From a virus (lineage: Duplodnaviria > Caudoviricetes): a stretch of 63,939 nucleotides of DNA. The notes below the pieces were generated by a model. That model was given only the letters and a program-made list of their open reading frames with translations, had not been told where the DNA came from and did no database searches. This document shows, one piece after another, positions 13,222 through 58,053 of the stretch. The stretch spans positions 1-63,939 of IMG/VR virus record IMGVR_UViG_3300025018_000162; one strand, written 5' to 3'. Every line of letters begins with the position of its first letter. Within the stretch, counting starts at the first letter, position 1. The translations under genes and the position numbers were made by a program.

Positions 13222-13867
13222 ATGAGGAACAATAAGTGCAAGCATTGCAAAAAAAACAATTGTTAGAGATGATTTAGATTCATGGAAGTACAATAATCTA
13301 AAATTTTGTGATGCCAGGTGCTTGAAGTTATACCGAGAAAATAAGAAAAATAGTCGAGATTCGAAAGAATGTTTGTGGTGTGGCAAACTGATTGTGAGAC
13401 CAGAGCTAGACGCGTGGCACTACAACCAGCTTAAGTTTTGTGATTTGAAGTGCTTAGGGAAATGGAATGGAGACAGGATGACGATGGACAAAAACAACCC
13501 GACAAGACTGTCTAATATCGGTAGGACAAGGAGTGACGAGGTGAGAAATAAAATAGCTGAATCCAAGCGTGGTTCCAAGAGTCATTTTTGGGAAGGAGGT
13601 AAATCTTATGAAAAATACACCGCCTCGTGGACAAATGCCCTAAGGTCAAGGGTGAGGAAAAGAGATAATAACAGGTGTGCTGTTTGCAACAAAAAACAGA
13701 AGAAAAGATTATTCCACATACATCACATAGATTATAACAAAAAAAATTGTACCGAGGGAAACCTTATCACTTTGTGCGCAAGCTGCCACGGGAAAACAAA
13801 CTCTAATAGAAGCTCTTGGATTGCATATTTTAATAAAGGCGACAAGACATGTTTAGATAGTAAATAG
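13222..13867 (+). CDS. HNH homing endonuclease with Zn-finger repeats and NUMOD3-like motif (5' part frameshifted)
   Basis: RDNNRCAVC...HHIDYNKKN...NLITLCASCH; upstream in another frame is a duplicate Zn-finger unit. Confidence 0.8.
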
Positions 13868-15773: not shown

Positions 15774-16185
15774 AGTATTGATACTGCGTGGACTACCTGC
15801 ATCTGGAAAAACGACACATGCGATGGAGCTTGTTAAAAGAGGGTATAAAAGAGTTAACAAGGACGACCTTAGAGCGATGATTGATGGTGGGAGGTATAGT
15901 GGGAAAAACGAGAAGTTAATATTAGAAATGAGAGACATGATAATAGATTTGGCGCTCATCCACGGCTACGATGTTGTGGTAGACGATACTAACTTTGCGC
16001 AAAAACACTTCGACCAAATCGCAAGTATAGCTGAAATAAACGGGGCAGAGCTTGAGGTCAAAGTATTTGACACTCCACTCAAAGATTGCATACGCAGAGA
16101 TGCTAGAAGGAAAAATAAAGTGGGCGAACGCGTTATCAGGGAGATGCATGACCGCTATATAGCTGATTATGAAGAACAATTTTAG
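15766..16185 (+). CDS. polynucleotide kinase-like P-loop kinase
   Basis: RGLPASGKTT, NKDDLR, VVDDTN, CIRRDARR. Confidence 0.85.
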   Translation: MNKVLILRGLPASGKTTHAMELVKRGYKRVNKDDLRAMIDGGRYSGKNEKLILEMRDMIIDLALIHGYDVVVDDTNFAQKHFDQIASIAEINGAELEVKVFDTPLKDCIRRDARRKNKVGERVIREMHDRYIADYEEQF

Positions 16186-16619
16186 TGAAGATGAAAAGAA
16201 TAAAAATAAAGAATAGGTACTGTCGTTTCGATAAAATCAACAGCTTAGAAATATTGGGGAAGAATTGGCGGTTGACGTGGAATGGATATGCCGTTAACGA
16301 AAAAATGGTCAATTATAAAAAAACAAGAATGTTAATGCATCACCTAGTCCTAGGGAAAAAAGACGGATATGAGATAGACCATATTAATGGGAACAAACTA
16401 GATAATCGTCTATGTAACTTGAGGCACGTTACCCGCTCACAAAATAACATGAACAAAAAAAATGTTAAGGGATACATCAAGACAAAAGAGGGTAACTATC
16501 AGGCTAATATAGGCAAGGATGGTAAAAAAATATGCCTAGGAACATATAAAACAATAGCAGAGGCAAAAGCTTCGAGAAGAATTGGAGAGATTAAATACTT
16601 TGGGGAATATGCAAGATAG
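16185..16619 (+). CDS. HNH endonuclease with AP2-like C-terminal domain
   Basis: MHHLV..IDHINGNKLDNRLCNL; LGTYKTIAEA..R..GEIKYFGEYA. Confidence 0.85.
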   Translation: MKMKRIKIKNRYCRFDKINSLEILGKNWRLTWNGYAVNEKMVNYKKTRMLMHHLVLGKKDGYEIDHINGNKLDNRLCNLRHVTRSQNNMNKKNVKGYIKTKEGNYQANIGKDGKKICLGTYKTIAEAKASRRIGEIKYFGEYAR

Positions 16620-16938
16620 TTATTCTCCTAAAAAATATATAAAAGAGTTTTTAGAAACTAACGGTTACGTGTACTGTGAGCTTTGTGGATTATCTAACAG
16701 TTTAGGATTCAGCGTACATCATATAATTTTTAGGAGTGAGCTAGGTAAAAAACAAGACATGCACAATAAGTTAAACCTAATATTGTTATGTTATGACTGT
16801 CACAACAACTTCCACACACACAAACAACTACGTAACAGATTAGTAGAAAAGCGTAAGTTAAACGAACTATTTGGACGTAATTTTATAAATAATAACAAAA
16901 AGTATTATGAAGAAGTATGTAGCACCAGAAGTTTTTGA
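16609..16938 (+). CDS. HNH endonuclease
   Basis: CELCG..HHIIFRS..NLILLCYDCHNNFH; probable start MQDSY. Confidence 0.8.
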   Translation: MQDSYSPKKYIKEFLETNGYVYCELCGLSNSLGFSVHHIIFRSELGKKQDMHNKLNLILLCYDCHNNFHTHKQLRNRLVEKRKLNELFGRNFINNNKKYYEEVCSTRSF

Positions 16939-18630: not shown

Positions 18631-21315
18631 ATGGATACAAAAAAAATAATAAACGAATACATAGACGGCTCAGATTGGAGAATAAAGGAGAACTCCAACA
18701 TGGCATATAGCCTGCAAGGACTCAATAATCATGTCGTCTCACATGCAATATCGGATTACTGGCTTAAAGAAATATATCCGACAAAGATAGGCGAGGCTCA
18801 TCTTAATGGAGATTATCACATACACGACCTGTCCAGTCTCGGATCGTATTGCGGAGGTTGGGATTTGAAAGACATCTTGATACACGGGTTCAATGGTGTC
18901 AGCGGAAAGGTTGAGTCTAGCCCTCCCAAGCATTTAAGGAGTGCGCTTGGGCAGTTGGTTAACTTTATGTATACTCTACAGGGGGAAATGGCAGGAGCGC
19001 AAGCTGTCTCGTCATTTGACACATTGTTAGCACCATATGTGAGGTACGACGGTTTAGATTACACAGCCGTTAAACAGGCAATACAGGAGTTTGTCTTCAA
19101 CATGAACGTTCCAACACGGGTCGGATTTCAATGTTTATCTGAGGATACAGAAATCCTAACTAGCAATGGGTGGGCCACACATAACGAGGTTGGGGTTGGA
19201 GAGCAAATCCTCACATACAATCTAGATAACGAAACAATAGAAAAGAAAAATGTTAAAGAATTCTTTAGAAGGGACTATTCTGGTGAAATGTATCATTTAA
19301 AAAATAGGGATACAGACCAACTAATCTCACCAGAGCATAGAGTTGTGAGAAGAAAATCGAACGGAGGAGAGGTCGAACTAATTAAAATAGAAGACTTACT
19401 TGAACTCAAAGGACCATATAATATCCCAGTTAAAACAAATGGGTACGATAGTGGAGACAATATTAATAGGTATAAAATGCTCTTGGCAGCTTGGATAATC
19501 TCAGAAGGCACAGTAGACAGACATGGGCGTGGTGTTGGAAGAATTTCTATCGCGCAGAAAAAGGGAACTAGCGGATACGAAAGAATACAGTATATCTTGA
19601 ACAAATTAGATTTTTACCCATACGAGAGAACAAGCACCAGCGAGTGGGGTGAGTGTACACAAATCAGACTTTCTGCTGAAGACAGCAAAATAATGTATGA
19701 GTTCTTTAACAGCGACAAGCAAACTGGGCTAAAGTTTATCCCAGATGTCATAAAGAATTCAAGCAAACAAAATATAATCGATTTCATAAACGAGTACATA
19801 AAGGGGGACGGGAACAAAGAGGATTTCACAACATCTACTATTTTCCCACAGCTCGTGGACGATTTTGGGGAGATGGCGGTGAAAGCTGGGTACCTAATGA
19901 ACGTTTGCGTCAAGAAGCCTGGTAGAAATAGCAAAAGAGATTTATACTCGCTTAACTTCAGGAGTGTGTCTAACGCGTATATCCAAAAAGAAGATGTTAA
20001 AAAGGTAAACTATTCTGGGATTATTTGGTGCCCGACGACAGATAATGGAACAATCATCGCAAGAAGAAACGGTAAAATATTCCTAACTGGAAACTCGGTT
20101 TTCAGCAACATCACGATGGATATTGTTCCAGATAAGGACACTGGTAATGAGAATGTTGTTGTAGATGGTAAGATAATGAAGGAGAAATATAAAGACTTCG
20201 ATAAAGAACGAGACACGATAAACATTGCCTTCGCCGATGTGATGATGGAAGGAGATGCCAAGGGGAGGATTTTCACATTCCCTATACCGACATACAATAT
20301 AACAAAGGAGTTCAAGTGGGGCTCACCAGTAGCGAACAAGGTGTTCGAAATGACTGGTAAGTATGGGATTCCATACTTCAGTAATTTTATTAATTCGGAT
20401 ATGGACCCAAGTGACGTCAGATCGATGTGTTGTCGTTTGCGTATCGACAACAGGACGCTCAAAAAAAGAGGAGGCGGTCTGTTCGGTGCCAATCCCTTGA
20501 CTGGTAGCATCGGTATAGTGACAATCAATTTACCAAGAATCGGATACTTGTCGAAAACAAACGATGAGTTCTTCGGGAGAATAAGTGAACTAATGGATTT
20601 AGCAAAAGAAAGCTTGGTCATTAAAAGAAAGGTTATCGAAGAGAAAACAGCCCGCGGCATGTATCCATACTCAGCGCATTATTTGAAGTTGGTTCACGAA
20701 AGGTTCGGTGAGTATTGGAAGAACCACTTTTCAACAATAGGTCTTATAGGGATGAACGAGGCAAGCCTTAATTTGCATGGATGTACAATCGCAACAAAAG
20801 AAGGCAAGGAATTCGCAGAAGAGACACTAATCTTTATGAGAGATAAGCTGATAGCGTATCAAGAAGAAACTGGAGATGTTTGGAATCTAGAGGCAACACC
20901 AGCAGAGGGAACGACAAGAAGATTGGCTGCGTTCGACAAGAAAAAGTACCCAGACATAATTGTTGCGAATGAAGATTCATTCAACAAAACAGGAGCAGCT
21001 CCATACTACACAAATTCATCGCATCTACCAGTCGACTATACGAGCGACGCCTTCGAATCTTTAGACCACCAAGATAGCTTACAGGCCCTATACACTGGCG
21101 GTACAGTAAGTCATATGTACCTAGGTGAGTCAATAAAAGATTATAGGTCTGTGGAAAAGTTAGTTAAAACAATTGCAGAAAAATATACTCTGCCATACTT
21201 TACAATAACACCAACATTCTCGGTATGTCCAGTTCATGGATTCTTGTCTGGTGAACATCAGTATTGTCCGAAGTGTGATGCAGAGTTAAAAGAACAACAC
21301 AATGAAGAAAACTAA
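18631..21315 (+). CDS. nrdD: anaerobic (class III) ribonucleotide reductase, intein-containing, lacking the glycyl-radical C-terminus
   Basis: DWRIKENSN, HIHDL, YCGGW, SMCCRL, EATPAEG, YTGGTV, CPVHG...CPKC. Confidence 0.95.
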   Translation: MDTKKIINEYIDGSDWRIKENSNMAYSLQGLNNHVVSHAISDYWLKEIYPTKIGEAHLNGDYHIHDLSSLGSYCGGWDLKDILIHGFNGVSGKVESSPPKHLRSALGQLVNFMYTLQGEMAGAQAVSSFDTLLAPYVRYDGLDYTAVKQAIQEFVFNMNVPTRVGFQCLSEDTEILTSNGWATHNEVGVGEQILTYNLDNETIEKKNVKEFFRRDYSGEMYHLKNRDTDQLISPEHRVVRRKSNGGEVELIKIEDLLELKGPYNIPVKTNGYDSGDNINRYKMLLAAWIISEGTVDRHGRGVGRISIAQKKGTSGYERIQYILNKLDFYPYERTSTSEWGECTQIRLSAEDSKIMYEFFNSDKQTGLKFIPDVIKNSSKQNIIDFINEYIKGDGNKEDFTTSTIFPQLVDDFGEMAVKAGYLMNVCVKKPGRNSKRDLYSLNFRSVSNAYIQKEDVKKVNYSGIIWCPTTDNGTIIARRNGKIFLTGNSVFSNITMDIVPDKDTGNENVVVDGKIMKEKYKDFDKERDTINIAFADVMMEGDAKGRIFTFPIPTYNITKEFKWGSPVANKVFEMTGKYGIPYFSNFINSDMDPSDVRSMCCRLRIDNRTLKKRGGGLFGANPLTGSIGIVTINLPRIGYLSKTNDEFFGRISELMDLAKESLVIKRKVIEEKTARGMYPYSAHYLKLVHERFGEYWKNHFSTIGLIGMNEASLNLHGCTIATKEGKEFAEETLIFMRDKLIAYQEETGDVWNLEATPAEGTTRRLAAFDKKKYPDIIVANEDSFNKTGAAPYYTNSSHLPVDYTSDAFESLDHQDSLQALYTGGTVSHMYLGESIKDYRSVEKLVKTIAEKYTLPYFTITPTFSVCPVHGFLSGEHQYCPKCDAELKEQHNEEN
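19132..20094 (+). mobile_element. intein with LAGLIDADG endonuclease in NrdD (321 aa)
   Basis: GFQ|CLSEDTEIL...SPEHR...AWIISEG...YIKGDG...FLTGN|SVFSN. Confidence 0.9.
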
Positions 21316-46265: not shown

Positions 46266-49091
46266 CTATTTAATGACATCGGCTAGTCTAGCATTTTTGT
46301 TCGGAGCCTTAATACAAAGGTTAGAATAATAACGTAGAGTTGCATTCCAAGCAGGAGTTGTTGCACTTCTGTCAAGGATTGAACCGTCCTCTTTCAAGAA
46401 AGAAATAGGAGCGATGTCTTCAATCGAAAGGGTTGAAGGGTCGATGAAGAAAGCTTCATCATATGGAGCGTCATAATCAGCTACCATAGGAATTCCGTTG
46501 AAGTCTACACCAGTGAATCCACCGTTAAGTTTCATATCACCGTTTGTGTAACGTCTGTCTGGAGTAAGTAGTTGACCGTATGCGCTTTGAACGTCCCAAG
46601 AAGTTAGAATGTACTTAGTATCACCTTTCTTCTGAGCTTGAATCCACGTATCGTGTAGTAAAGCATCTGTCAATGAACGTTGGGTTGTGTTGTCATTAAC
46701 ATAAGATTTCCACCAAATATATGTAGCTCTTGCTAGCCCTTGAAGAGAAGCTACGTTGGTTCCGTCATCGATAAGACCTTTAAGTCCCATGATTTCGTAA
46801 TCCTTGTTAGACTGTGTTGCAGATTGAGCGATATAAATTGCGTCATTATCTGCGATTGCTGCTACTGCTGCGTCAATTTCAAATGTATCACCATCTGTGA
46901 TTGAAGCTACTGTTGCGATTGTGCTAGCTGTTGCACCGAATCTGATAACGTTTCCAATTTCGATGTAATCTGTAGCGTCTTTTCCAACCATTGGGTTATC
47001 GAGTTCAATAGTTGTTCCAGTGGTAGGATCGCCGTTAACTTTAGCGATTTCACCAGTACCCAGTTTGTTATTATCTCACATGAGATATACTAATCATTTC
47101 TGTTAGTATCTCACAGTTGTTTTTCCTGTGAGGTCAGACTATCGCTTCCTATTTCTAGGTTATCACACTTAGTCGTTACAGCTGCACCATTGTCTAATTT
47201 ATTTCGGTATTTTGACTCTTTATAAACATGTTTTAATTCTCTGCATCTGAGATAAATCTTTTCTCTTATATTTATCTCATTCTCTGTCAGCGGCAATGCT
47301 TTGCCGTCTGCGTCTCTAAGAGTTTTTTGTAATCTATTTTGCAAATTTATAGCTAGAAGGGCTTGGTCTCTTTTATACTTTAGGAACGGGAGGACGTCCT
47401 TCAGGACAGCAGACGCTTTTTTATGCGTTATGTTCCACACATAGCAAGGATAATCTTTCTTGTCTTTCCATTGCACCGTACCTCCAAAGTTCCCAGTTAG
47501 CCAATCCATTATTGCACCGTCTCGTTGCGAAACGGTTAACAACACTGAATAGCTAACGCTTGTCCTTCTCCTTCCGTTCTTGTCTGTGCGTGGATTTCTT
47601 TTTGCTACCATTATACATCCCTCTCCGTCTATAAAGCCTGCTAAATATGCTAACTTTATTGCTTTTGTTTGTTTCATAATCCTAATGTTATAAAACCGAA
47701 ATAAATTGTAATGTGCTTGCTAGGGGTTGCCAATTTCAGGATTCCCCTTATCAGTGATAATTTTGTTTGTTTGTTTATAGGGCAAACGATGGAATCAGTA
47801 ACTTGGTGAAAAGCCTTTTAATACCATACCCTTGACGACTAAGTTGGCGTTGCATATCGTTCTTAGCTCCATCATATTCTGATTCAAGAACGTTTACCAA
47901 GAACTCTTTAGAACGTTTTGAACCTTGTAGAACAACGTCTGTAAGAGAGATTTGGTGAAAGTTGTATTTCATTGGGATGTTAGCTTGTACGTAAGCTTGT
48001 TGCCCAGCTGTTGGAAGGGTCAATGTTTCAGAACCAGCGGCTGATCCTGTGTTCAATATCTTATCTCTACGTTTCCGTAGAAGTTGAGACTATATCTTCA
48101 TCCAAGAATATCTTTAATCCTTTTAGGATTCGTCTTGGAGACTAACATGTAGTCGTTGAGAATTTTTCTAATGAAATTTATTTTAGCCATTTTCCTTTCT
48201 ATCCGTAATCTTATCTTTAATTTAATAAAGTCTAATGTGTCGAAAAATAGTCTATACGTATTTTTACTAGCTTTGATTTTTGTTGGACCCCAATTCTTGA
48301 GTTGCATCTTGTTGCATAGCCTAGAAATATTATTCATCATTATTTCAGACCCACTCAATCCTATTTGCCAATTTAATCCTCTACCAGTACCAGATACGTT
48401 AAAAACAGCCCAACCATCTCCATCTACCATTCCAGCAATAAATTCTTTTTTAATGCTTTCCTTACCATTCAAAATCCAAGTTGGTATCTTTGTTTTATTT
48501 TCTGTTTGTATTGTTAAATACTCGAACAATTCTTTTTCGTATATGCGAATTGTGAACATATTTTTCTTCCCGTATCCTGTCGGTTTACTTTCATAAACGG
48601 ATCCTGTTTTACCGATTAAATTATCTATACATTTATTTGTATAGTTTATATAATCCATGTCAATGGATGATAGTTTAAAAACATATCCTCTATTTTGCTT
48701 AAAACAGCTTCCGTCTGAAAGATACACCCCAGTTAAATACGCGAGATATTTGTTTTCTTTCATAGAAATCTTTTCTGCGGATTGTCCAATCCTTTGGGTT
48801 TTTACACTTTGGTACCAAAGGCTCTAAGGAGTTTCCCGCATTTAGTTAGTTTAATTGTCAAAGAAATTACTTTCTGCGGGTCGCAACATATTTACGACCA
48901 TAGTGGACGGTTATCATTTTACCACCACCACCAATTGCTGATTCGCCTGCTATGCTAACTGCACCTGTATCGTGTGCGACGTTTTTTAGAATATTCATGA
49001 ATAGAACATTCTTTGTAAATACTTGCTCGTGAACCACTTCGTCATAGACTCTAAGTGCTGCACCAGCCATATTTGTTACGGATTGTGACAT
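46266..49091 (-). CDS. major capsid protein, 3 exons (49091-48894, 48053-47820, 47060-46266; 408 aa spliced)
   Basis: exons join in frame: ...VHYGR|NTGSAAGSE...LPTAGQQ...QGYGI|GTGEIA...EIMGLKGLIDD...GGFTGVDFNGIPMVAD; follows scaffold. Confidence 0.85.
47061..47819 (-). mobile_element. group I intron 2 of capsid gene
   Basis: exon ends in U with P1 (UGGUAUU/GAUUCCA); P10 UUUCACCA/UGGUGAAA; R GUAACGACUA; S AAGCGAUAGUCU; terminal G. Confidence 0.85.
47111..47677 (-). CDS. intron-encoded LAGLIDADG endonuclease (single motif)
   Basis: YLAGFIDGEG; LPFLKYKRDQA. Confidence 0.9.
   Translation of the reverse strand: MKQTKAIKLAYLAGFIDGEGCIMVAKRNPRTDKNGRRRTSVSYSVLLTVSQRDGAIMDWLTGNFGGTVQWKDKKDYPCYVWNITHKKASAVLKDVLPFLKYKRDQALLAINLQNRLQKTLRDADGKALPLTENEINIREKIYLRCRELKHVYKESKYRNKLDNGAAVTTKCDNLEIGSDSLTSQEKQL
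48054..48893 (-). mobile_element. group I intron 1 of capsid gene
   Basis: P1 GGUCGU/GCGACC with U.G; P AAAUGCGGGAA; Q AAUCCGCAG; R UCAACGACUA; S AAGAUAUAGUCU; terminal G. Confidence 0.9.
48098..48763 (-). CDS. intron-encoded LAGLIDADG endonuclease (double motif)
   Basis: YLTGVYLSDG and FIAGMVDGDG. Confidence 0.9.
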   Translation of the reverse strand: MKENKYLAYLTGVYLSDGSCFKQNRGYVFKLSSIDMDYINYTNKCIDNLIGKTGSVYESKPTGYGKKNMFTIRIYEKELFEYLTIQTENKTKIPTWILNGKESIKKEFIAGMVDGDGWAVFNVSGTGRGLNWQIGLSGSEIMMNNISRLCNKMQLKNWGPTKIKASKNTYRLFFDTLDFIKLKIRLRIERKMAKINFIRKILNDYMLVSKTNPKRIKDILG

Positions 49092-49141: not shown

Positions 49142-49864
49142 TTAGTTTATATTTTCATCGGAACTTGCCGACATGGCTTCCAATATAGCACTCCGTAGGT
49201 CTTCTGTGTTCTTTGGTTTAACCGCCTGTGGTTCTCTCGATGGAGAGCCTCCTGGGGTTTCGACGTTCTGAACTTCTGGTTTCTTGTTTAATCTTTGCTT
49301 GATTTCATAGTCAATGATTTCTGCTCTACTCATTTCGTTAAAAGCCTCACCTGGTGATAAGTGTAACTTGTTGTTAGCTTCTTGCCAATCCAAGACCTTC
49401 TTATCGTCATATCTTGGCTTTCCTGCTTCACCGTTCCACTGTTCCTCAAGTGTTTTTACTTCTTGTTTTATTTTTTCAACTTGCGTTTGCTTTTGCTGTT
49501 CCTCTTGCCGTTGTTGCTCGCGCCTGTCTAGCATTTCTTCAACTTGTTCAGCTGTTAGATTAGAAACCTCTTGTACCTCGGGTTGCTTAGGGTTGAGAGC
49601 TTCTTTGAGTCTTTCCTGTGTTTCGAACGTTTGATTCAGTCTTGCTTCTAACTCTTTTTTAGATTCTCTCTCCTGTCTAAGTGCTTTGTTCAGATTATCA
49701 ATCTGTTCTTGCGTCTTAGAAAAGTCTACGTTGTTATTTTGCACTGGCTCTGGTTGTGCGTCCATTCTTACTTCTGGCGAAGTTACTACTTCTGCAGTTG
49801 GTGTAGCGGTAGGGTCTACGGCTGCTGCTGCAGCTTCTTGTACTACCTTGTTTTCATTTTCCAT
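49142..49864 (-). CDS. capsid scaffolding protein
   Basis: Q/E-rich coiled coil between portal and capsid. Confidence 0.7.
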   Translation of the reverse strand: MENENKVVQEAAAAAVDPTATPTAEVVTSPEVRMDAQPEPVQNNNVDFSKTQEQIDNLNKALRQERESKKELEARLNQTFETQERLKEALNPKQPEVQEVSNLTAEQVEEMLDRREQQRQEEQQKQTQVEKIKQEVKTLEEQWNGEAGKPRYDDKKVLDWQEANNKLHLSPGEAFNEMSRAEIIDYEIKQRLNKKPEVQNVETPGGSPSREPQAVKPKNTEDLRSAILEAMSASSDENIN

Positions 49865-50173: not shown

Positions 50174-52039
50174 TTATTGTTGTTGTCCGCCATATTGCTC
50201 TTCTTGCATTATATGTTGGTCAAATAATTCTTTGTTAGGTTCATAGGCATCTCTGTTTTCAGAAATGAATGCCATATGAAGTTGTAAATGTTCTGGTGTC
50301 CACAACGCTTTAGGGGTTGCTGGCACTTGCTGACCTGCTGCCATTTGCATGTTCTCTTGGTCTGCCAAATCTGCTGTATCTTCTGGACCGTTTCCGTCTG
50401 TTCGATGACTCTCCCGTTGTTTCATCATATCTTCCTTGAACTTCTCATCTTTCATCTTCTGCATCCTCCCCATTATATCAGCGATGTTTGTGAACTTGAA
50501 TTGTTCCATTAAAGTTTCTGGGTCAATGAGTTGAGCCTCTGCTAATCTCATAATCCACTCCTTCTTATTCTCTTCGCTGTATGATATCTCTGGAACAATG
50601 GAGACTTTTACCTCGTCTTCGCCAGTAATAACAATAGCACCTTCTGGTCTGTTCTCTGCTGCTGAACCGATATATTTAATATCTGTTTTACCTTCTGAAA
50701 TTTCCTCTGTAGCGATGCCGTAGTCTGCTATTAGTTCTAGGATGAATGTCCCCATTTCTTGCAACATCAGCTCAAGGTTCTCTATTGGCTCTGCTACTGT
50801 TCCAGCGTCTGCTGATTGTAGAGCCTCAATCCCCTTACCAGATTGGAGTGAACCAGTTGCCTTACCTAGCGAAGCTTCTCTCACTCCACCAAGCTCTTCT
50901 ATCCATCCTTCTATGTTTCCCATGAACTGGAATGGTGTCCCTGGCAATGGCTGTAGGTCCATTTGTTTTGGTGCAACATTACCTTTATAGTAAATCTTTT
51001 CAGCACCTTTGTCTGTAATCATTGAAACTTCAACTCCTTGTTTGATAAGATATTTACCAGCAAGCATACGTTGTATATACGCTTCTATTTGTGATGCTGT
51101 CTTATCTAGCGACTTGTTGAGTGTAATCAAATCCTTAATCCATGGTTGGCTAAAGATTGATTCGTCATTTCTTTCTGGTGTATATAAGAAAATTGGGTAG
51201 CGTCTATATTTTGGCATATAAACTCTCAAAATATTATTCCCACAGAAAGTAATAACTTTAACTTTAACCTCATCGTCCTCCACCCACTTCATCCAGAGTT
51301 CTTTAACAACCGCTGTTTCTAGTTCTTTGTTACTCTTGTTGGCCTCTCTGTTATATTTCTCTAGCTCTAAGATGTTTTTATAATCTGCGGCGGCCTCTCT
51401 GTTGTCTGAGATATTCTCGTCTTCAACTTTGTAATCTTTGTTGCCCTTAATCGCCTCTACTGGTTTGACAAAGGTTTTAAAGATGTATCTACAGCCTTCT
51501 ATTGTTGGTGAGTATGGGTCTGGTAGGATATCGTATGAGCTGTTAACCCAAAAGTCAATCTGTTCTTTCCCGTCCTTTTTAATCATCCCACCTTCAATAA
51601 ATCCTGCCGAATACTTAAGGCCATTAACAATAACATCTGTGAGGTTTTGTTTTATTTGTCTTTTTCTATAGATGTTTTGTAGAATTTTATTCTTTGCTTC
51701 TGCCTCTTTATATGCCTCATCTTTAGCACTGTTTGGATGAACCTCCCACCTTGGTTGGCTTCTCTTAACAAAGTTTTTAATCCCACGGAGTTGCGAACGT
51801 ATTTTGTTTATTGTACGTCTGACTTCTCCCTTTGCTACTGGTATTGTTTGGATTCTATTTAATGTTTTATTAAAAACAATCCAATGGTCGCCTCTAACGA
51901 AGCGGTCTATAATATACCAATCTTTGTGTTGTTTTAAATACATGTCCGATGTAGACTTGTATAAGTTATCTAAGAAATGGATAGCCTCTGCATTTCTTCC
52001 AGTACCATCGTATGTTCTTAGACTTTTCAAATTAATCAT
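50174..52039 (-). CDS. portal protein
   Basis: 621 aa; TINKIR..P.WEV.P, ELGGVREASLG..SGKGIEALQ, C-terminal H..H..F..H. Confidence 0.8.
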   Translation of the reverse strand: MINLKSLRTYDGTGRNAEAIHFLDNLYKSTSDMYLKQHKDWYIIDRFVRGDHWIVFNKTLNRIQTIPVAKGEVRRTINKIRSQLRGIKNFVKRSQPRWEVHPNSAKDEAYKEAEAKNKILQNIYRKRQIKQNLTDVIVNGLKYSAGFIEGGMIKKDGKEQIDFWVNSSYDILPDPYSPTIEGCRYIFKTFVKPVEAIKGNKDYKVEDENISDNREAAADYKNILELEKYNREANKSNKELETAVVKELWMKWVEDDEVKVKVITFCGNNILRVYMPKYRRYPIFLYTPERNDESIFSQPWIKDLITLNKSLDKTASQIEAYIQRMLAGKYLIKQGVEVSMITDKGAEKIYYKGNVAPKQMDLQPLPGTPFQFMGNIEGWIEELGGVREASLGKATGSLQSGKGIEALQSADAGTVAEPIENLELMLQEMGTFILELIADYGIATEEISEGKTDIKYIGSAAENRPEGAIVITGEDEVKVSIVPEISYSEENKKEWIMRLAEAQLIDPETLMEQFKFTNIADIMGRMQKMKDEKFKEDMMKQRESHRTDGNGPEDTADLADQENMQMAAGQQVPATPKALWTPEHLQLHMAFISENRDAYEPNKELFDQHIMQEEQYGGQQQ

Positions 52040-52292: not shown

Positions 52293-52545
52293 ATTCTTTG
52301 TTTAGTTGTCTAATCAGAAGTTTTTCGTCTGTTTCATTAACATCTTCTAACTCGTCTTGCTCTGGCTCCTCTTCCACCTCGTTATCTTCTGGTATTGTCT
52401 CAACATATTCTTCTAGTGTTTGTGCAGTTAACGCTTTGGTAATTTCCCTTACAAGCTCTTTTTGCTGCTTAGAATTTTGGGCCATTACGTATATAATGGT
52501 CCCGAATGCAGCAAGTATATTAATTATTAGTATTAGTTCTATCAT
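52273..52545 (-). CDS. membrane protein
   Basis: N-terminal TM, acidic tail. Confidence 0.55.
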   Translation of the reverse strand: MIELILIINILAAFGTIIYVMAQNSKQQKELVREITKALTAQTLEEYVETIPEDNEVEEEPEQDELEDVNETDEKLLIRQLNKEYETIKN

Positions 52546-54103
52546 TTGGTTTGATGGCTATTGCAACATTTGATGTAAGCATTGTGCTTGCGGCACCTAC
52601 TGCGTTAGCTAGTTCATTTTTAACACATCTCACTGGGTCAATCACGCCATCTTCGAATAGGTTTGTGTATTCGTTTGTAAGTGCGTTATACCCGTTTTCT
52701 CCACTTTGTATTTTCGCTATGATTGCATCTGCTGGTAAACCTGCATTAAGCAATATTTGTTTGCATGGCATAAGCATAGCACGTTTGATTATATTCCATC
52801 CTGCTACATGCTCTTCATTCTCGTTGTCTGGTGCTAGCATCAAGTCTGCTGCCCTAACGAGTGCTGTTCCTGCTCCTTCTACTATCCCGTCCTCTACTGC
52901 AGATTTTGTTGAATTCAAAGCGTCTTCGATCCTGTACTTAACTTCTGTTTGTTCTGTCTCAGATGCTCCACCGACACGAATGTTCGCAATAGATCCATTC
53001 AATCTTCCCATTCTTTTTTTTAATTGGTCGATAAGGAAGGCATCTTTGTATTTTTTGAGTAAGGCATTAACGCCAGCAATTCTTTCTGTGACATCTCCGT
53101 CTGCCCCTGTAAAGATTGTTGAGTCTTTACTAACAACAACGTGTGCGGATGTTCCTGTGTGTGCTAGTGTACAGTCACTTAGTCTAACTGACTCTTCTTC
53201 TCCGAGGACTGTTGCCCCTGTTGCTGCTGCTAGGTCGTAGAACAAATCTCTCTGGTAGTCGCCGAACGATGGCATGCTAACTGGAACACATGTGAACTTA
53301 CCAAGCATATGGTTTTGCGCCAAGAACGCTACTGCTGGTCCTTCAACAGACCCTGCTACCAAAATCATGTTTCTTTTTCCTTCTTTTAAAAGTGATTGGA
53401 GCATTTTAACCAACTGACTTTCCATGTTAATCTTATCTGTGGTAAGAATAATCGTTGGGTTCTCCATTTCAGCTGAAAGCATCTTACTGTTGTTTATAAA
53501 CATATGAGATGCATATCCTCTATCCAGCTTTGTTCCTTTAACATATTCTACTGTAGTATCTACAGAGTTAGAATTTGTTACAGTAACAATTCCATTAGTT
53601 CCTGTCTCTTCGATGACATCTGCGATCATTTGACCAATCTCTTTGTCGTTGTTTGCAGATATTGTTGCAATTTGCACCTTCTCATCTTTAGATGTTACTT
53701 CTTTCTTAGAACCGTCAACTATTCCTAGCGCTTGCACTAGTGCTGCGTCCATCCCTCTCTTTAGAAGGATTGGGTTCATTCCTGCTGTTATATATTTGTG
53801 ACCTTCGTTCGCAATGGCTCTTAGAAGGACTACTGTTGATGTTGTTCCGTCTCCAGCCTCTCTATTTGTGTTCTCTGCTGCCTCTCGTGTCATCATTACC
53901 CCCATGCTTTCGAACTTGTCTTCCAGCATTACCTGTTGTGCAACTGTAACACCATCCTTGGTTACTGTTGGATATATTGATTCCTCAAATATCACATTTT
54001 GTCCACGTGGACCGAGTGTTGTTGCTACCGCGTCTGCTACAATGTTAACTCCTTTTATAATTTTGATTCTGGCATCTCCGCCAAAAAGAATTTCTTTATA
54101 CAT
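52520..54103 (-). CDS. groEL: chaperonin GroEL
   Basis: TTLGPRGQNV, KDGVTVA, AGDGTTST, ISANND, RIEDAL, GVIDP. Confidence 0.95.
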   Translation of the reverse strand: MYKEILFGGDARIKIIKGVNIVADAVATTLGPRGQNVIFEESIYPTVTKDGVTVAQQVMLEDKFESMGVMMTREAAENTNREAGDGTTSTVVLLRAIANEGHKYITAGMNPILLKRGMDAALVQALGIVDGSKKEVTSKDEKVQIATISANNDKEIGQMIADVIEETGTNGIVTVTNSNSVDTTVEYVKGTKLDRGYASHMFINNSKMLSAEMENPTIILTTDKINMESQLVKMLQSLLKEGKRNMILVAGSVEGPAVAFLAQNHMLGKFTCVPVSMPSFGDYQRDLFYDLAAATGATVLGEEESVRLSDCTLAHTGTSAHVVVSKDSTIFTGADGDVTERIAGVNALLKKYKDAFLIDQLKKRMGRLNGSIANIRVGGASETEQTEVKYRIEDALNSTKSAVEDGIVEGAGTALVRAADLMLAPDNENEEHVAGWNIIKRAMLMPCKQILLNAGLPADAIIAKIQSGENGYNALTNEYTNLFEDGVIDPVRCVKNELANAVGAASTMLTSNVAIAIKPNDRTNTNN

Positions 54104-54594: not shown

Positions 54595-55581
54595 TTATTC
54601 GAGATCGAAGTTGTCCATTAAGTCATACATCTTCGGTCTCATTAGGTTATTAATGTCCTTCTGGATTCTTGTTGGTTTTTGTGTAACCACATCTGGTGAA
54701 CTAGGTCTAGTCATCATAAGATATCTAAGTGCATCCATTCCGTGGTCATTCTTTTTAATTGGTTTTTCTGGTTCGTTGTTCTGTCTATCTGTTTTCTCTG
54801 TGTTCTCTCTATATCTATAGTGCCTCATCTCCCAACATAAGTTTGGGCACATATCTTCGAATATATAGAGATTAGAGTTACCAGCATTATCAATTCTAAG
54901 ATACTCTCTTATCCTCGTTATCCCTGCATCCCAATCATTGTGTGCTCTTTCGAACTCCCATCCATTATCTTCAAAGTCTTCTATAACAGAGTACGGGATT
55001 TCTTCCCCCTCTATTATCTTGGTTCTATTCTTATGGCCTGTAGAAGGATCGATGACCTTTATTTGAAAGGTGTTATCTGCCAACACTTTCTTCTGTCTTA
55101 TAGTCATGTTCGAGGAATAACCTGGCATTAGGTATCCGAACTTGTCAAACATTTCTCTACTCGCTACGCTCGGGATGGCTGGGTTGTAATATTCGTCTAT
55201 AATATAAACAACATTATTACGGTCGATTGCACCAACCAATGCGCAGTTAGGGTTCCTTTGCCCAAAGTCTACAGCTAGGAATAATTCCACATCTCCTAAC
55301 TCGAATGAGTTAATTGTATGGATGTCTGAGCTAAAGTCACAATACTCTGGTCCAAATACTAGTTTACCAGCCTTTGTAGTGAAGTCAATCTCATACTCCT
55401 TACACCAGACTGACTTCGGTGCACCAAGTCTCTCCTTCTCGTACCATTCCTTACCGTTTCTGTCTGGGTCTTTATCTGGGTCCGCGGAGTAATGAATCAT
55501 CATTACATGAAATCCATTGTTAGGATTCTGCCAGAACTTTACTCCCTTTATTATCTCTGGCTTTTTGATTTCTTCATACAT
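54595..55581 (-). CDS. terL: terminase large subunit, C-terminal nuclease gene
   Basis: IHYSADP, EYEIDF, AVDFGQRNP, IDEYY, NDHGMDALRY. Confidence 0.85.
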   Translation of the reverse strand: MYEEIKKPEIIKGVKFWQNPNNGFHVMMIHYSADPDKDPDRNGKEWYEKERLGAPKSVWCKEYEIDFTTKAGKLVFGPEYCDFSSDIHTINSFELGDVELFLAVDFGQRNPNCALVGAIDRNNVVYIIDEYYNPAIPSVASREMFDKFGYLMPGYSSNMTIRQKKVLADNTFQIKVIDPSTGHKNRTKIIEGEEIPYSVIEDFEDNGWEFERAHNDWDAGITRIREYLRIDNAGNSNLYIFEDMCPNLCWEMRHYRYRENTEKTDRQNNEPEKPIKKNDHGMDALRYLMMTRPSSPDVVTQKPTRIQKDINNLMRPKMYDLMDNFDLE

Positions 55582-55976
55582 ATTTTGGCTATTCTTTGTG
55601 TAAGGCGTTCTAATGCTTTAGTTGTAGCATCTTGTGTTGAGAACCTGTCTAACGCGTGTGTGTACAATTCGTGGGTTAATCCATGTATAAGCTCATGGTA
55701 TACAGATTCTCTTAGGTCATCTTCCCCAAGGTCTCTGTAGTCTCTCAACATCGCTGGCATCCATGAGATTGTTATTTTCTCGTACTCTTGGGTTACTGAA
55801 CTTAGGGCACTTGCAATAAATACTTGTCCAGAACCATCTTGATCTCCGTGTATCTTCCCATTAACGAACTCATTTATTATAGACCAGGAATTCATGTTGA
55901 GTCTTTCCTTTGCTTCATCTACCGTCTTTAGGACCAACCTTTCTTCTTTTTTAGTCCACTTATAATCTTTTGTCAT
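55551..55976 (-). CDS. HExxH zinc-metallopeptidase-like protein
   Basis: VYHELIHGL. Confidence 0.55.
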   Translation of the reverse strand: MTKDYKWTKKEERLVLKTVDEAKERLNMNSWSIINEFVNGKIHGDQDGSGQVFIASALSSVTQEYEKITISWMPAMLRDYRDLGEDDLRESVYHELIHGLTHELYTHALDRFSTQDATTKALERLTQRIAKICMKKSKSQR

Positions 55977-55994
55977 AATACATTTTTGCTAACA

Positions 55995-56529
55995 TCACAT
56001 TTCTAGCAACTCTTTTCGTTTCTTAAAAAAGCTTTTCCACTTATCTCTTTTAAAGTTGGTTTTTGCGTGGCAGCTTTTGCATAGAGCAGTTAAGTTGTCT
56101 GGGTTACAGTTTTGTTTATTATAATCGATGTGGTGCACATCGTGTGCAACGTCCCCCTGCTTTTCCCCGCACAGCTGGCAGGTATATTTATCTCTTTCTC
56201 TTATGCTTATTTTAAGCGTTTTTGTCCATTCTTGGGGATACTCTTCCAGAGATAAACCCCCTTGCCAATTGCTGGCATTTTCTCCAGTTTTCCCAGTGTG
56301 TACTTTAACTTGTTTTTTTCTGTACTCTTTGTTCTCCCAATTTTTTTTACTATTCTCGCTTATCTTCCTCTTGGTTTCTTCCGAATGTTTTCTTCCTTTA
56401 AAAGATGGTTTATTGTTTTTTCTCATTTTAGCTAGTGTTTCTTCGCTAAATTTTCTTCCAATAAGCTTTTGTCTTATTTTTTCTTTATGTTCTGTGGTTA
56501 ATGTTTTCCCACTATTTCCATGTGCCATA
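55995..56529 (-). CDS. NUMOD3-HNH homing endonuclease (start at MAHGNSG)
   Basis: GRKHSEETKRKIS repeats; RDKYTCQLCG..HHIDYNK..NLTALCKSCH. Confidence 0.85.
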
Positions 56530-56547
56530 TCTTTGCTAATATTAGCC

Positions 56548-58053
56548 TCACATTTCCAACCTGTCAAAACAAGCATCTTCGAACCAGGTATTATCTTCTG
56601 CGGTACTCACACAAGTAAGTTTTCCACCAGAACTGAGTGTTGGCTTTAGTGCAGTATATGCACTTGCCATTTCTGGTTGGAAAGCTGACTCATCCGAATT
56701 GTGGGATGCTATCCCCTCTGCAACGAATGTTCCTGTGGATGTTGTTAGTCCTATAACCTCTTGTTCTCCTATTGGCTCTTTCTTAATTAAGTTAATACCA
56801 TCTATCGCGTTCATTGCTCCCCATGTATCTATATTAAATTTTGCCAATAATCTTTCTGGCCTTGTTTGACCGATGATTTTTAATATATCGCTCTTGACTC
56901 CAGTCCTCAGGGCATGATGTGGAGTTGAATACTTGTCGTTGTTTATTATTCTTTCTATAAAAGGATATCCCAGTTTTTTATAAATATTCCTTGTCTTCTC
57001 TAGCATCGCGTTCTCATTCTGTGGGAATGTTAGTCTTATCCTGCTTGTAACTATGGCGTCGTCTTCTACAACCAGCGCTTGGTCTAGACTTCCCTCTCCG
57101 TCTAGTGCTCCAGCGAGATAACCAGTATCATAGTCGTTTTTGTCTTCCCAGCGTTCAAGGACTTTCCACACCTTAGAGCCAGCCCTGTCTCCATTTTGGC
57201 ACCGAAGGTCTTTCGTCTTAATCCACTTCGAATGTTGTCCGTGTCCAGCTAACCATCTGTGGTTCTCTGAGCTTACAACCTCTGTTCCATCTGAGAACGT
57301 TAATTTATAGCTTGGTTGTTTATTGACATGGACTGCCTTCACGACTGTATTTTTCCACCTTCTTGAATAATTGACACCATTTTTACCAGTTCCAGAGTCT
57401 CCAATGTTTTCGTCGAATCCTATTAAGTTGTCGCCCTCTTCTATTTCGTCTATTCTAACCCATTTTAGATCACTTGTTAAAACCTTGGTTTCTGGCCCTA
57501 GACACAGCATACCGCTTAAAGTATGCATACGCACGACATCCCCACCTTCTGGGATTCCTCTAATTTCAGACTTAATGTCTGGAAAGGCTAGAAGTGAATA
57601 TGTATGGTTCCCCTGGTTATGTGGGTTACATTTTAATTGGTGGAATTCACCATTTTTATAATAACGTTTAAGGAACTTAGGTTCTTGCTCCCAAATAGTG
57701 TAGGCTCTTTTAACTAAGTCGTTGGCATCGTCTGCTTTCTTACTTTGGAAAAAGGTTAATCTACCGAAATGGAACTGTGTGTCCCAAAGATATAGAGCTG
57801 CGAACACCCAACTCATCATCATTTGACGAGATTTGGGGAATAAGAGGATTTGGTGCTTTAACCACTTCTCCACAACAAGTCTCAAGTATTCCTTTTCGGG
57901 GAAGGTCTTCTGTGGATTCTCATCATCATGTACGTCTAATGTATATGCCCAGTTGGTTAACCAGTAATATGGGTCGTCATGACATTTAGCCCACTCCAAA
58001 TTCCTTAATTCAGGACTTTTAGCGAGCTTTTGTAAAAATTCTACATCTTTCAT
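56548..58053 (-). CDS. terL: terminase large subunit, N-terminal ATPase gene, intein-containing
   Basis: KSRQMMMSW Walker A; spliced Walker B SGMLSDE; VST coupling motif. Confidence 0.85.
   Translation of the reverse strand: MKDVEFLQKLAKSPELRNLEWAKCHDDPYYWLTNWAYTLDVHDDENPQKTFPEKEYLRLVVEKWLKHQILLFPKSRQMMMSWVFAALYLWDTQFHFGRLTFFQSKKADDANDLVKRAYTIWEQEPKFLKRYYKNGEFHQLKCNPHNQGNHTYSLLAFPDIKSEIRGIPEGGDVVRMHTLSGMLCLGPETKVLTSDLKWVRIDEIEEGDNLIGFDENIGDSGTGKNGVNYSRRWKNTVVKAVHVNKQPSYKLTFSDGTEVVSSENHRWLAGHGQHSKWIKTKDLRCQNGDRAGSKVWKVLERWEDKNDYDTGYLAGALDGEGSLDQALVVEDDAIVTSRIRLTFPQNENAMLEKTRNIYKKLGYPFIERIINNDKYSTPHHALRTGVKSDILKIIGQTRPERLLAKFNIDTWGAMNAIDGINLIKKEPIGEQEVIGLTTSTGTFVAEGIASHNSDESAFQPEMASAYTALKPTLSSGGKLTCVSTAEDNTWFEDACFDRLEM
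56698..57504 (-). mobile_element. intein with LAGLIDADG endonuclease in TerL (269 aa)
   Basis: GML|CLGPETKVL...SSENHRW...YLAGALDGEG...GIASHN|SDE. Confidence 0.9.

Follow-up and report, generated by a model that had tools for sequence, protein, structure and literature searches.

A predicted phage major capsid gene interrupted by two probable group I introns with LAGLIDADG endonuclease genes

The predicted major capsid protein gene of an uncultured tailed phage is interrupted by two inserts, which are very probably independent, mobile group I introns. The gene lies at positions 46266-49091, on the minus strand, of a 63,939-nucleotide (nt) DNA (IMG/VR record IMGVR_UViG_3300025018_000162), the whole of which is referred to as the window. 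Among the minus-strand open reading frames (ORFs), two of 221 and 188 amino acids (aa) lie between three capsid-like pieces. The parts of the gene, in the order of transcription and all on the minus strand, are:

48894-49091: capsid exon 1, 198 nt, 66 codons, with ATG at 49091 and ending ...HYGR
48054-48893: intron 1, 840 nt, terminal G at 48054; group I by sub-threshold matches to Rfam RF00028 and a hand-drawn structure
48098-48763: intron-1 ORF, 221 aa, LAGLIDADG with two motifs at residues 10-18 and 109-117
47820-48053: capsid exon 2, 234 nt, 78 codons, reading NTGSAAG...RQGYGI
47061-47819: intron 2, 759 nt, terminal G at 47061; group I by a hand-built structure
47111-47677: intron-2 ORF, 188 aa, LAGLIDADG of the I-CreI/I-MsoI type with a single motif at residues 12-20
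46266-47060: capsid exon 3, 795 nt, 264 codons and stop

The three exon lengths are all multiples of 3, and the joined exons encode 408 aa plus stop, in frame. The inserts between them (840 nt, 48893-48054; 759 nt, 47819-47061) have the coordinates proposed in an initial annotation of the sequence, which had also predicted the in-frame 408-aa product. That annotation named the junctions HYGR/NTG and YGI/GTG as the places where intron-less homologs should align, and the homologs are indeed continuous across both, with zero residues gained or lost. Full-length homologs, for example P0004, read VHYGR-NTGSAAG and RQGYGI-GTGE unbroken. The same is seen in DNA. At an intron-less locus (L001) whose protein is 89% identical, exons 1, 2 and 3 abut directly, and the junction DNA is identical to the ligated window exons at site 2 and has synonymous differences only at site 1.

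The boundaries of intron 2 are set by comparison with intron-less DNA alone, giving an exon-final T and an insert-final G. The ends of intron 1 stay ambiguous by 2 nt on this basis, since AA starts both the insert and exon 2; requiring U as the last exon base and G as the last intron base, as is the rule for group I, gives 48893/48054. Both upstream exons thus end in U and both inserts end in G, at 48054 and 47061, and other copies of the two introns are likewise G-terminated. An earlier G at 48065, the end of the Rfam local alignment, was rejected as the end of intron 1 since it would place an in-frame stop. Two other classes of insert were also rejected. Read on from the exons, the frames close after 8 and 14 codons of insert sequence, giving ORFs of 74 and 93 aa; the inserts are therefore not inteins, and a search for a Hint domain was negative. 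No group II RNA family was found with Rfam at E up to 10, and the ORFs are LAGLIDADG proteins, not reverse transcriptases.

The interrupted gene is assigned to the major capsid protein by the profile match of a homolog and by its position in the predicted head module. The intron-free P0004, a protein of 407 aa with 84% identity to the window over exon 3, is matched along its full length (residues 2-405) by PHROG 14242 "major head protein", with E 4.3e-57. Exon 3 itself matches Pfam SU10_MCP with 18.7 bits, under the cut-off of 24.1, and the full-length homologs P0004 and P0007 gave no Pfam family at E up to 0.01. A tblastn search with exon 3 found annotated major capsid proteins of Arthrobacter and Microbacterium phages (12 records, ~31% identity, E down to 1e-13). 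Of 1238 candidates from a large protein collection, 193 were related to exon 3 at E <= 1e-3, and many of these are 395-418 aa long. The window probably belongs to an SU10-like tailed phage. Gene callers do fragment the gene, as the initial annotation had expected: the called protein of the window is P0002, a 241-aa fragment, and the protein collection contains calls of 241, 265 and 315 aa where ~408 aa would be expected.

A core fold with a P3/P7 pseudoknot, a P4-P6 domain, P8 and P9 can be drawn in both introns. The helices of intron 1, in window positions, are:

48899-48894 with 48884-48879: P1, GGUCGU/GCGACC
48875-48862: P2, a hairpin with a GNRA loop
48850-48845 with 48146-48141: P3, ACUAAC/GUUAGU
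48840-48835 with 48781-48776: P4, UGCGGG/UCCGCA
within 48830-48785: P5 and P5a
48766-48758 with 48176-48167: P6, long-range, enclosing the ORF and containing its AUG
48154-48150 with 48092-48088: P7, GACUA/UAGUC
48139-48133 with 48107-48101: P8
48083-48065: P9

Rfam RF00028 matches the 3' core of intron 1 at 48237-48065 (39.4 bits, E 7.8e-8) and its 5' part at 48903-48688 (20.0 bits, E 0.052). The ORF of ~660 nt separates the two half-matches, splitting the model. Pairing was counted in an alignment (A4) of four copies, those of the window, L013, L002 and L021. In these, 97.5% of 241 cells pair, and 11 of the 61 pairs show changes on both sides. Neither value was reached in any of 500 shuffles, and when the partners were slid by 1-3 columns only 32-47% of cells paired, with 2-4 both-sided changes. 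The changes include the exon-intron helix: in L021 the P1 exon base is C in place of U, and the guide base opposite it is G in place of A. In the same copy CU/AG of P3 becomes UC/GG. P2 is formed by three unrelated stems among the copies, and P5a contains GG/CC, CG/CG or AA/UU. P7 is invariant and hence uninformative. The U.G pair at the splice site of P1 is kept in four of four copies. A P10 pairing between bases 5' of the guide and the start of exon 2, found by eye, is UGUU/AACA in the window and UAUU/AAUA in L021, and has two pairs only in L002.

The structure of intron 2 has the same order of elements as intron 1 and as an intron in locus L026 (described below). Its helices are:

47827-47820 with 47796-47789: P1, AUGGUAUU with GAUUCCAU, with the U.G pair at the splice site and one U.U mismatch
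47787-47769: P2
47760-47754 with 47166-47160: P3, UUAUCAC/GUGAUAA
47747-47744 with 47726-47723: P4, GGGG/CCCC with A-rich joiners
47722-47713 with 47187-47179: P6/P6a
47707-47696 with 47207-47196: P6b, 12 base pairs, enclosing the ORF
47174-47170 with 47141-47137: P7, GACUA/UAGUC
47159-47148: P8, a hairpin with a GAAA loop
47132-47110: P9
47109-47087: P9.1
47086-47073: P9.2

The motifs ...ACGACUA... and ...AAGCGAUAGUC... of intron 2 agree with those of intron 1 and of the L026 intron, in a comparison with ...AAGAUAUAGUC.... The U.G pair of P1 is again kept in four of four copies, and P10, by eye, is GGUA/UACU. Pairs were counted in six rows (window, L013, L006, L030 and the partial L028 and L017; alignment A3). 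Of 331 cells 97.0% pair, and both-sided changes occur in 14 of 74 pairs. None of 500 shuffles was as high on these measures, although 90 of 500 were as high for further pair types; slid controls paired 34-42% of cells with 0-3 both-sided changes. The compensated pairs are found in P2, P6b, P8, P9, P9.1 and P9.2. P1, P3, P4, P5 and P7 are invariant, hence uninformative.

The initial annotation had described a U.G-ended P1, a terminal G and a group I core in each insert, and the hand-drawn helices with their compensatory changes agree with this. With group I models its assignment holds in part: both halves of intron 1 are found, below the gathering score, and intron 2 gives no match. Over the whole window Rfam reported only four transfer RNAs (tRNAs) at the gathering threshold, and at E <= 0.05 its only group I match was the 3' half of intron 1. 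When six related loci were searched together the match was in L026 only, though three of them hold near-identical intron-1 cores; these misses were attributed to speed filters.

Several points weigh against two spliced group I introns. Both RF00028 scores of intron 1 are under the gathering score of 50. In intron 2 RF00028 finds nothing, even with 47040-47840 searched separately at E up to 10, and the group I assignment of intron 2 therefore rests on the hand-built structure. Both structures were drawn by eye from the same few related sequences, four and six rows, some partial. Because the structures are derived from these same sequences the slid control is biased toward them, and the shuffle control ignores kinship among the rows. 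The P10 of intron 2 is weak in L013, with two pairs by eye. A sequence search of the PDB with the intron-1 ORF gave no match. Finally, in a search of sequencing runs none of RNA type contained the stretch, and two DNA contig runs (X1, labelled aquifer metagenome and possibly the source of the window, and X2, with a small share) showed neither joints nor an intron-less form.

Some of these points bear on another reading, in which the inserts are non-splicing nuclease gene cassettes and the capsid protein is made as two or three polypeptides that assemble. A reported precedent for split polypeptides is the NrdA gene of phage Aeh1, split by mobE (PMC7344957). In favour of such cassettes, splicing is read here from sequence, with no RNA run containing the stretch and no joints in the DNA contigs, and Rfam does not recognise intron 2. 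Against them, neither exon 2 nor exon 3 has its own start codon at the junction, except for a TTG that includes the last G of the intron. Compensatory changes maintain the 61 and 74 RNA pairs, including co-varying exon-intron pairs of P1, and the boundaries follow the U and terminal-G rule. Pieces of 66 and 78 aa from an HK97-type capsid protein would also be unlikely to fold alone. A set of unspliced cassettes is thus considered highly unlikely.

A smaller chance still, close to none, is given to an error of assembly or to a defective genome in which the gene is dead. The window does come from a metagenome assembly, and the only run that contains it in full may be its own source. However, one contig spans the whole stretch with no differing letters at a word depth of ~16, and both introns recur at the same sites in two other contigs (L013/L018 and L014/L019), whose exons are free of stops and 86-97% identical in protein.

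Splicing of both introns is therefore the preferred explanation, and from the anatomy of the inserts and the comparison with intron-less genes we infer that it occurs. The capsid gene would be transcribed as one pre-mRNA. Each intron would fold into a ribozyme with the P1 U.G pair at the 5' splice site, the P3/P7 pseudoknot, the P4-P6 domain and P9 extensions. Each would then remove itself by two guanosine-initiated transesterifications, leaving an mRNA for the 408-aa capsid protein.

Both introns encode LAGLIDADG proteins that score above the Pfam cut-offs. The intron-1 ORF matches LAGLIDADG_3 (E 7.3e-6, 26.6 bits, cut-off 22.5) and PHROG 4645 "endonuclease" (E 7e-10), and a tblastn search of phage records gave no match. 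It has two motifs and is therefore predicted to be a monomer-type enzyme. The intron-2 ORF matches LAGLIDADG_1 (E 1.9e-8, 35.6 bits, cut-off 23.1). Its residues 7-121 align in the PDB with I-MsoI (E 2.8e-12 for a fused dimer, 4.7e-6 for the monomer) and with I-CreI (E about 1e-5), the monomer matches ranging overall from 4.7e-6 to 1e-4. With one motif it is expected to be a homodimer. The nearest relatives in cultured phages are ~31% identical (11 records, Caulobacter, Streptomyces and Gordonia phages). Its PHROG family label, "HNH endonuclease", is in conflict with the Pfam and PDB matches and is taken to be a probable mislabel. A 46% identical relative of this nuclease occurs in another contig, at L016:2501-3004, with no capsid exons within 2.5 kilobases (kb); the family therefore also occurs in another gene or free-standing.

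I-CreI and I-MsoI come from algal rRNA introns and share with the intron-2 ORF the aligned residues 7-121 and the one LAGLIDADG motif. The intron-2 ORF differs in a C-terminal extension of ~60 residues past the alignment, of which the last ~32 come from ribozyme-core DNA, and in its predicted target, which would be protein-coding capsid sequence.

The 3' end of each ORF overlaps the ribozyme core, as had been noted initially. In intron 1 the start codon is inside the 5' strand of P6, the stop (48100-48098) directly follows the 3' strand of P8, and the ORF covers the 3' strand of P6, the 5' strand of P7, the 3' strand of P3, and P8. In intron 2 the stop (47113-47111) is within the 3' strand of P9, and the last ~32 codons overlap the core from the 3' strand of P6b through P9. 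Thus ~30 codons of each ORF are doubly constrained.

The introns are present patchily among related capsid loci. Occupancy was judged in 23 distinct capsid loci found with the capsid query alone, after removal of duplicates with identical exon-3 DNA and of L011, L012 and L045, which have <45% identity. Site 1 holds intron 1, site 2 holds intron 2, and site 3 is inside exon 2:

Site 1: occupied in 1 of 19 judgeable loci (L002)
Site 2: occupied in 1 of 20 judgeable loci (L006)
Site 3: occupied in 1 of 20 judgeable loci (L026)

All three sites are empty in 17 of the 23 loci. L028 and L030 add to site 2, with the 3' part of the intron and a 70-77% identical nuclease before exon 3, exon 2 being off the contig. 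Searches with the nuclease queries added further loci, and the set so enlarged is biased toward introns. In it both introns are found in L013/L018 and L014/L019 (two contigs) at the same sites as in the window, with stop-free exons of 86-97% protein identity. Intron 1 alone is found in L002 and L021 and intron 2 alone in L006; L017 has intron 2. At identical sites in related contigs, each intron is present or absent independently of the other.

The nucleases are conserved beyond their host genes. Among hosts with 53-86% identity in exon 3, the intron 1 nuclease keeps 87-91% identity. In L021 this nuclease is 87% identical to that of the window, against only 50-53% identity for capsid exons 1 and 3. 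In an alignment of 14 sequences the insertion sites are at invariant capsid residues, R65/N66, K94/Y95 and I143/G144 in P0004 numbering. Homing nucleases usually target conserved sequence of this kind. The patchy presence at identical sites, together with the nuclease conservation, lends indirect support to cleavage of the intron-less allele at the insertion site. In the proposed homing, the LAGLIDADG nucleases would cleave the conserved insertion sequence in capsid alleles without the intron, carried by related phages that infect the same cell, and repair after the cut would copy the intron in.

An alternative is that the introns splice but that their LAGLIDADG proteins are mainly maturases or inactive remnants, the elements being no longer mobile. 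LAGLIDADG proteins acting as maturases are established in organelle introns, and where each ORF overlaps the ribozyme core, protein and RNA are tied together in their evolution. A legend in PMC7886860 uses the term "intron-encoded endonuclease maturase" for LAGLIDADG. But the acidic motif residues are intact in both ORFs (...SDG and ...DGDG in the first, ...DGEG in the second), and both ORFs are full length in every copy seen. Further, exon 3 is only 50-58% identical where the nucleases are 64-87% identical, suggesting recent transfer. Loss of mobility is on these grounds improbable, and mobile introns with functional homing nucleases remain the favoured interpretation.

Locus L026 carries other introns. 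Its exon 3 is 92% identical to that of the window, and it is without both window introns and has two others:

L026:498-1215: a group I-like insert of 718 nt that interrupts the codon for Tyr in PMK-Y-NFHQ (residue 96 of the window capsid protein)
L026:591-1175: ORF of 194 aa in this insert, LAGLIDADG-like (PHROG 5046, E 4.6e-11), its 3' end overlapping the core
L026:1-246: 3'-terminal part of a further group I intron, matched by Rfam at 90-239 (25.5 bits, E 7.7e-4)
L026:2-184: partial ORF, of a different kind from the LAGLIDADG ORFs

The exon before the first insert has ...GAAGU at its end, paired with GCUUC; the insert is G-terminated, and Rfam gives sub-threshold group I matches of 17.7 and 15.2 bits. 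The other intron ends just before ...RVYD, near capsid codon 13/14, and the contig is cut upstream. Its partial ORF may resemble Vsr/DUF559-type nucleases but had no match in PHROGs. Counted with the window, the capsid family uses at least four intron insertion sites.

Introns of this type are known. The initial annotation had taken two LAGLIDADG introns in a capsid gene as unusual, on the premise that phage introns are mostly in genes of DNA metabolism and usually carry HNH or GIY-YIG nucleases. The premise reflects older literature, and the unusualness was overstated, with capsid introns already published for LittleE, Tuc2009 and crAss-like phages. In mycobacteriophage LittleE a ~0.8-kb intron in the major capsid gene, with exon-final U and intron-final G, carries an I-CreI-like LAGLIDADG ORF and is absent from close relatives (PMC3706429). 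Its splicing was shown by reverse transcription PCR and N-terminal sequencing. LittleE differs in having one intron with its ORF on the opposite strand, whereas the window has two probable introns with sense-strand ORFs that overlap the ribozyme core. The same paper cites a capsid intron in lactococcal phage Tuc2009 (PMC3706429).

In crAss-like phages group I introns are typically in core genes including the capsid gene, and one capsid gene is split into five fragments (PMC7886860). The Delta and Zeta groups resemble the window in having several group I introns per capsid gene, in metagenome-assembled genomes with fragmented gene calls. They differ in phage lineage and capsid family from the SU10-like window, and their introns were identified by protein domains, those of the window by RNA structure and covariation (PMC7886860). 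Phage CB7 has spliced HNH-bearing introns in terminase and replication genes (PMC7344957), and PMC6669764 added nothing on capsid introns. Among the papers found with limited search terms, supplements lying outside the search, none describes this phage lineage or these two introns. Capsid-gene introns, LAGLIDADG ones among them, and capsid genes with several introns are all already published, and current understanding is unchanged.

The P4-P6 core of intron 1 has relatives in other phage genes. About 70 nt (window 48844-48772) are 78-86% identical to stretches in 22 phage records, and a blastn comparison of the entire region with 50,697 phage records gave no match past this core. In two of three records inspected the match is inside a gene annotated as spliced. 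These are the large terminase gene of Bacillus phage AR9/PBS1 (a join of five pieces) and the portal gene of Pseudomonas phage KIL1 (a join of two pieces, with an adjoining HNH gene), each with a core ~81-82% identical. Only the ~70 nt are alike; the host genes, the remaining intron and the nuclease are distinct. In an Acinetobacter phage the match is in unannotated DNA between an HNH gene and a terminase gene.

The capsid gene is located in a module of head genes. An SU10-type adaptor, a GroEL-like gene and terminase genes are also within the window. Upstream of the capsid gene, on the minus strand, are:

49142-49864: 240-aa ORF between the portal and capsid genes
50174-52039: portal protein gene (Pfam P22_portal, E 1.3e-18; PHROG 156 portal, E 2.5e-26)
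52523-54103: phage-encoded GroEL-like chaperonin, between the terminase and portal genes (Cpn60, E 1e-58; PHROG 5725, E 2e-121)

Gene position suggests that the 240-aa product is a scaffolding protein; it had no PHROG match, and Pfam gave one sub-threshold coiled-coil-like match only.

The window also has other candidate selfish elements. The large terminase gene at 54598-58053 (minus strand) looks split:

58053-56551, minus strand: terminase ATPase ORF, with an ATPase match only over residues 20-138
56576-55998, minus strand: HNH/NUMOD3 endonuclease ORF
55581-54598, minus strand: terminase nuclease domain ORF

The split may be due to another intron or to insertion of a free-standing nuclease gene; Rfam found no group I match in 55400-56800. 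On the plus strand, an anaerobic ribonucleotide reductase NrdD (18631-21312, 894 aa, E 1e-169) has a weak match to an intein-splicing domain at residues 190-368, which may be an intein. Further features of the window are:

13322-13864, plus strand: HNH endonuclease ORF, early/replication region
16185-16616, plus strand: HNH endonuclease ORF, early/replication region
16582-16935, plus strand: HNH endonuclease ORF, early/replication region
5537-7837, plus strand: the four tRNA genes (Rfam, 52-61 bits)

With these three more HNH ORFs the genome is rich in selfish nuclease genes.

It is conceivable, though doubtful, that the capsid family is a hotspot of ongoing intron warfare, with the nucleases as weapons between co-infecting phages. 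The basis for this idea is that the exon-3 products of the window and L026 are 92% identical while their intron sets are wholly different. The nucleases would cut the capsid gene of a rival late in infection, and the overlap of ORF and ribozyme core would tie nuclease translation to splicing. Such cutting of a rival was shown for an intron nuclease of phage PhiPA3 (PMC11620839).

The capsid genes of this phage and its relatives are mis-annotated as fragments, which harms capsid-based classification of metagenomic phages. The two probable introns are a further, well-documented instance of group I introns with LAGLIDADG genes, here in a late structural gene from a lineage of uncultured phages. 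Naturally occurring alleles with and without introns, co-variation of exon and guide after transfer into a divergent gene, and several alternative insertion sites provide material for studies of homing and of intron-mediated competition. Most interesting is the family-wide pattern, in which at least four alternative sites are used, near-identical capsid genes carry differing sets of introns, and exon and guide co-vary after transfer.

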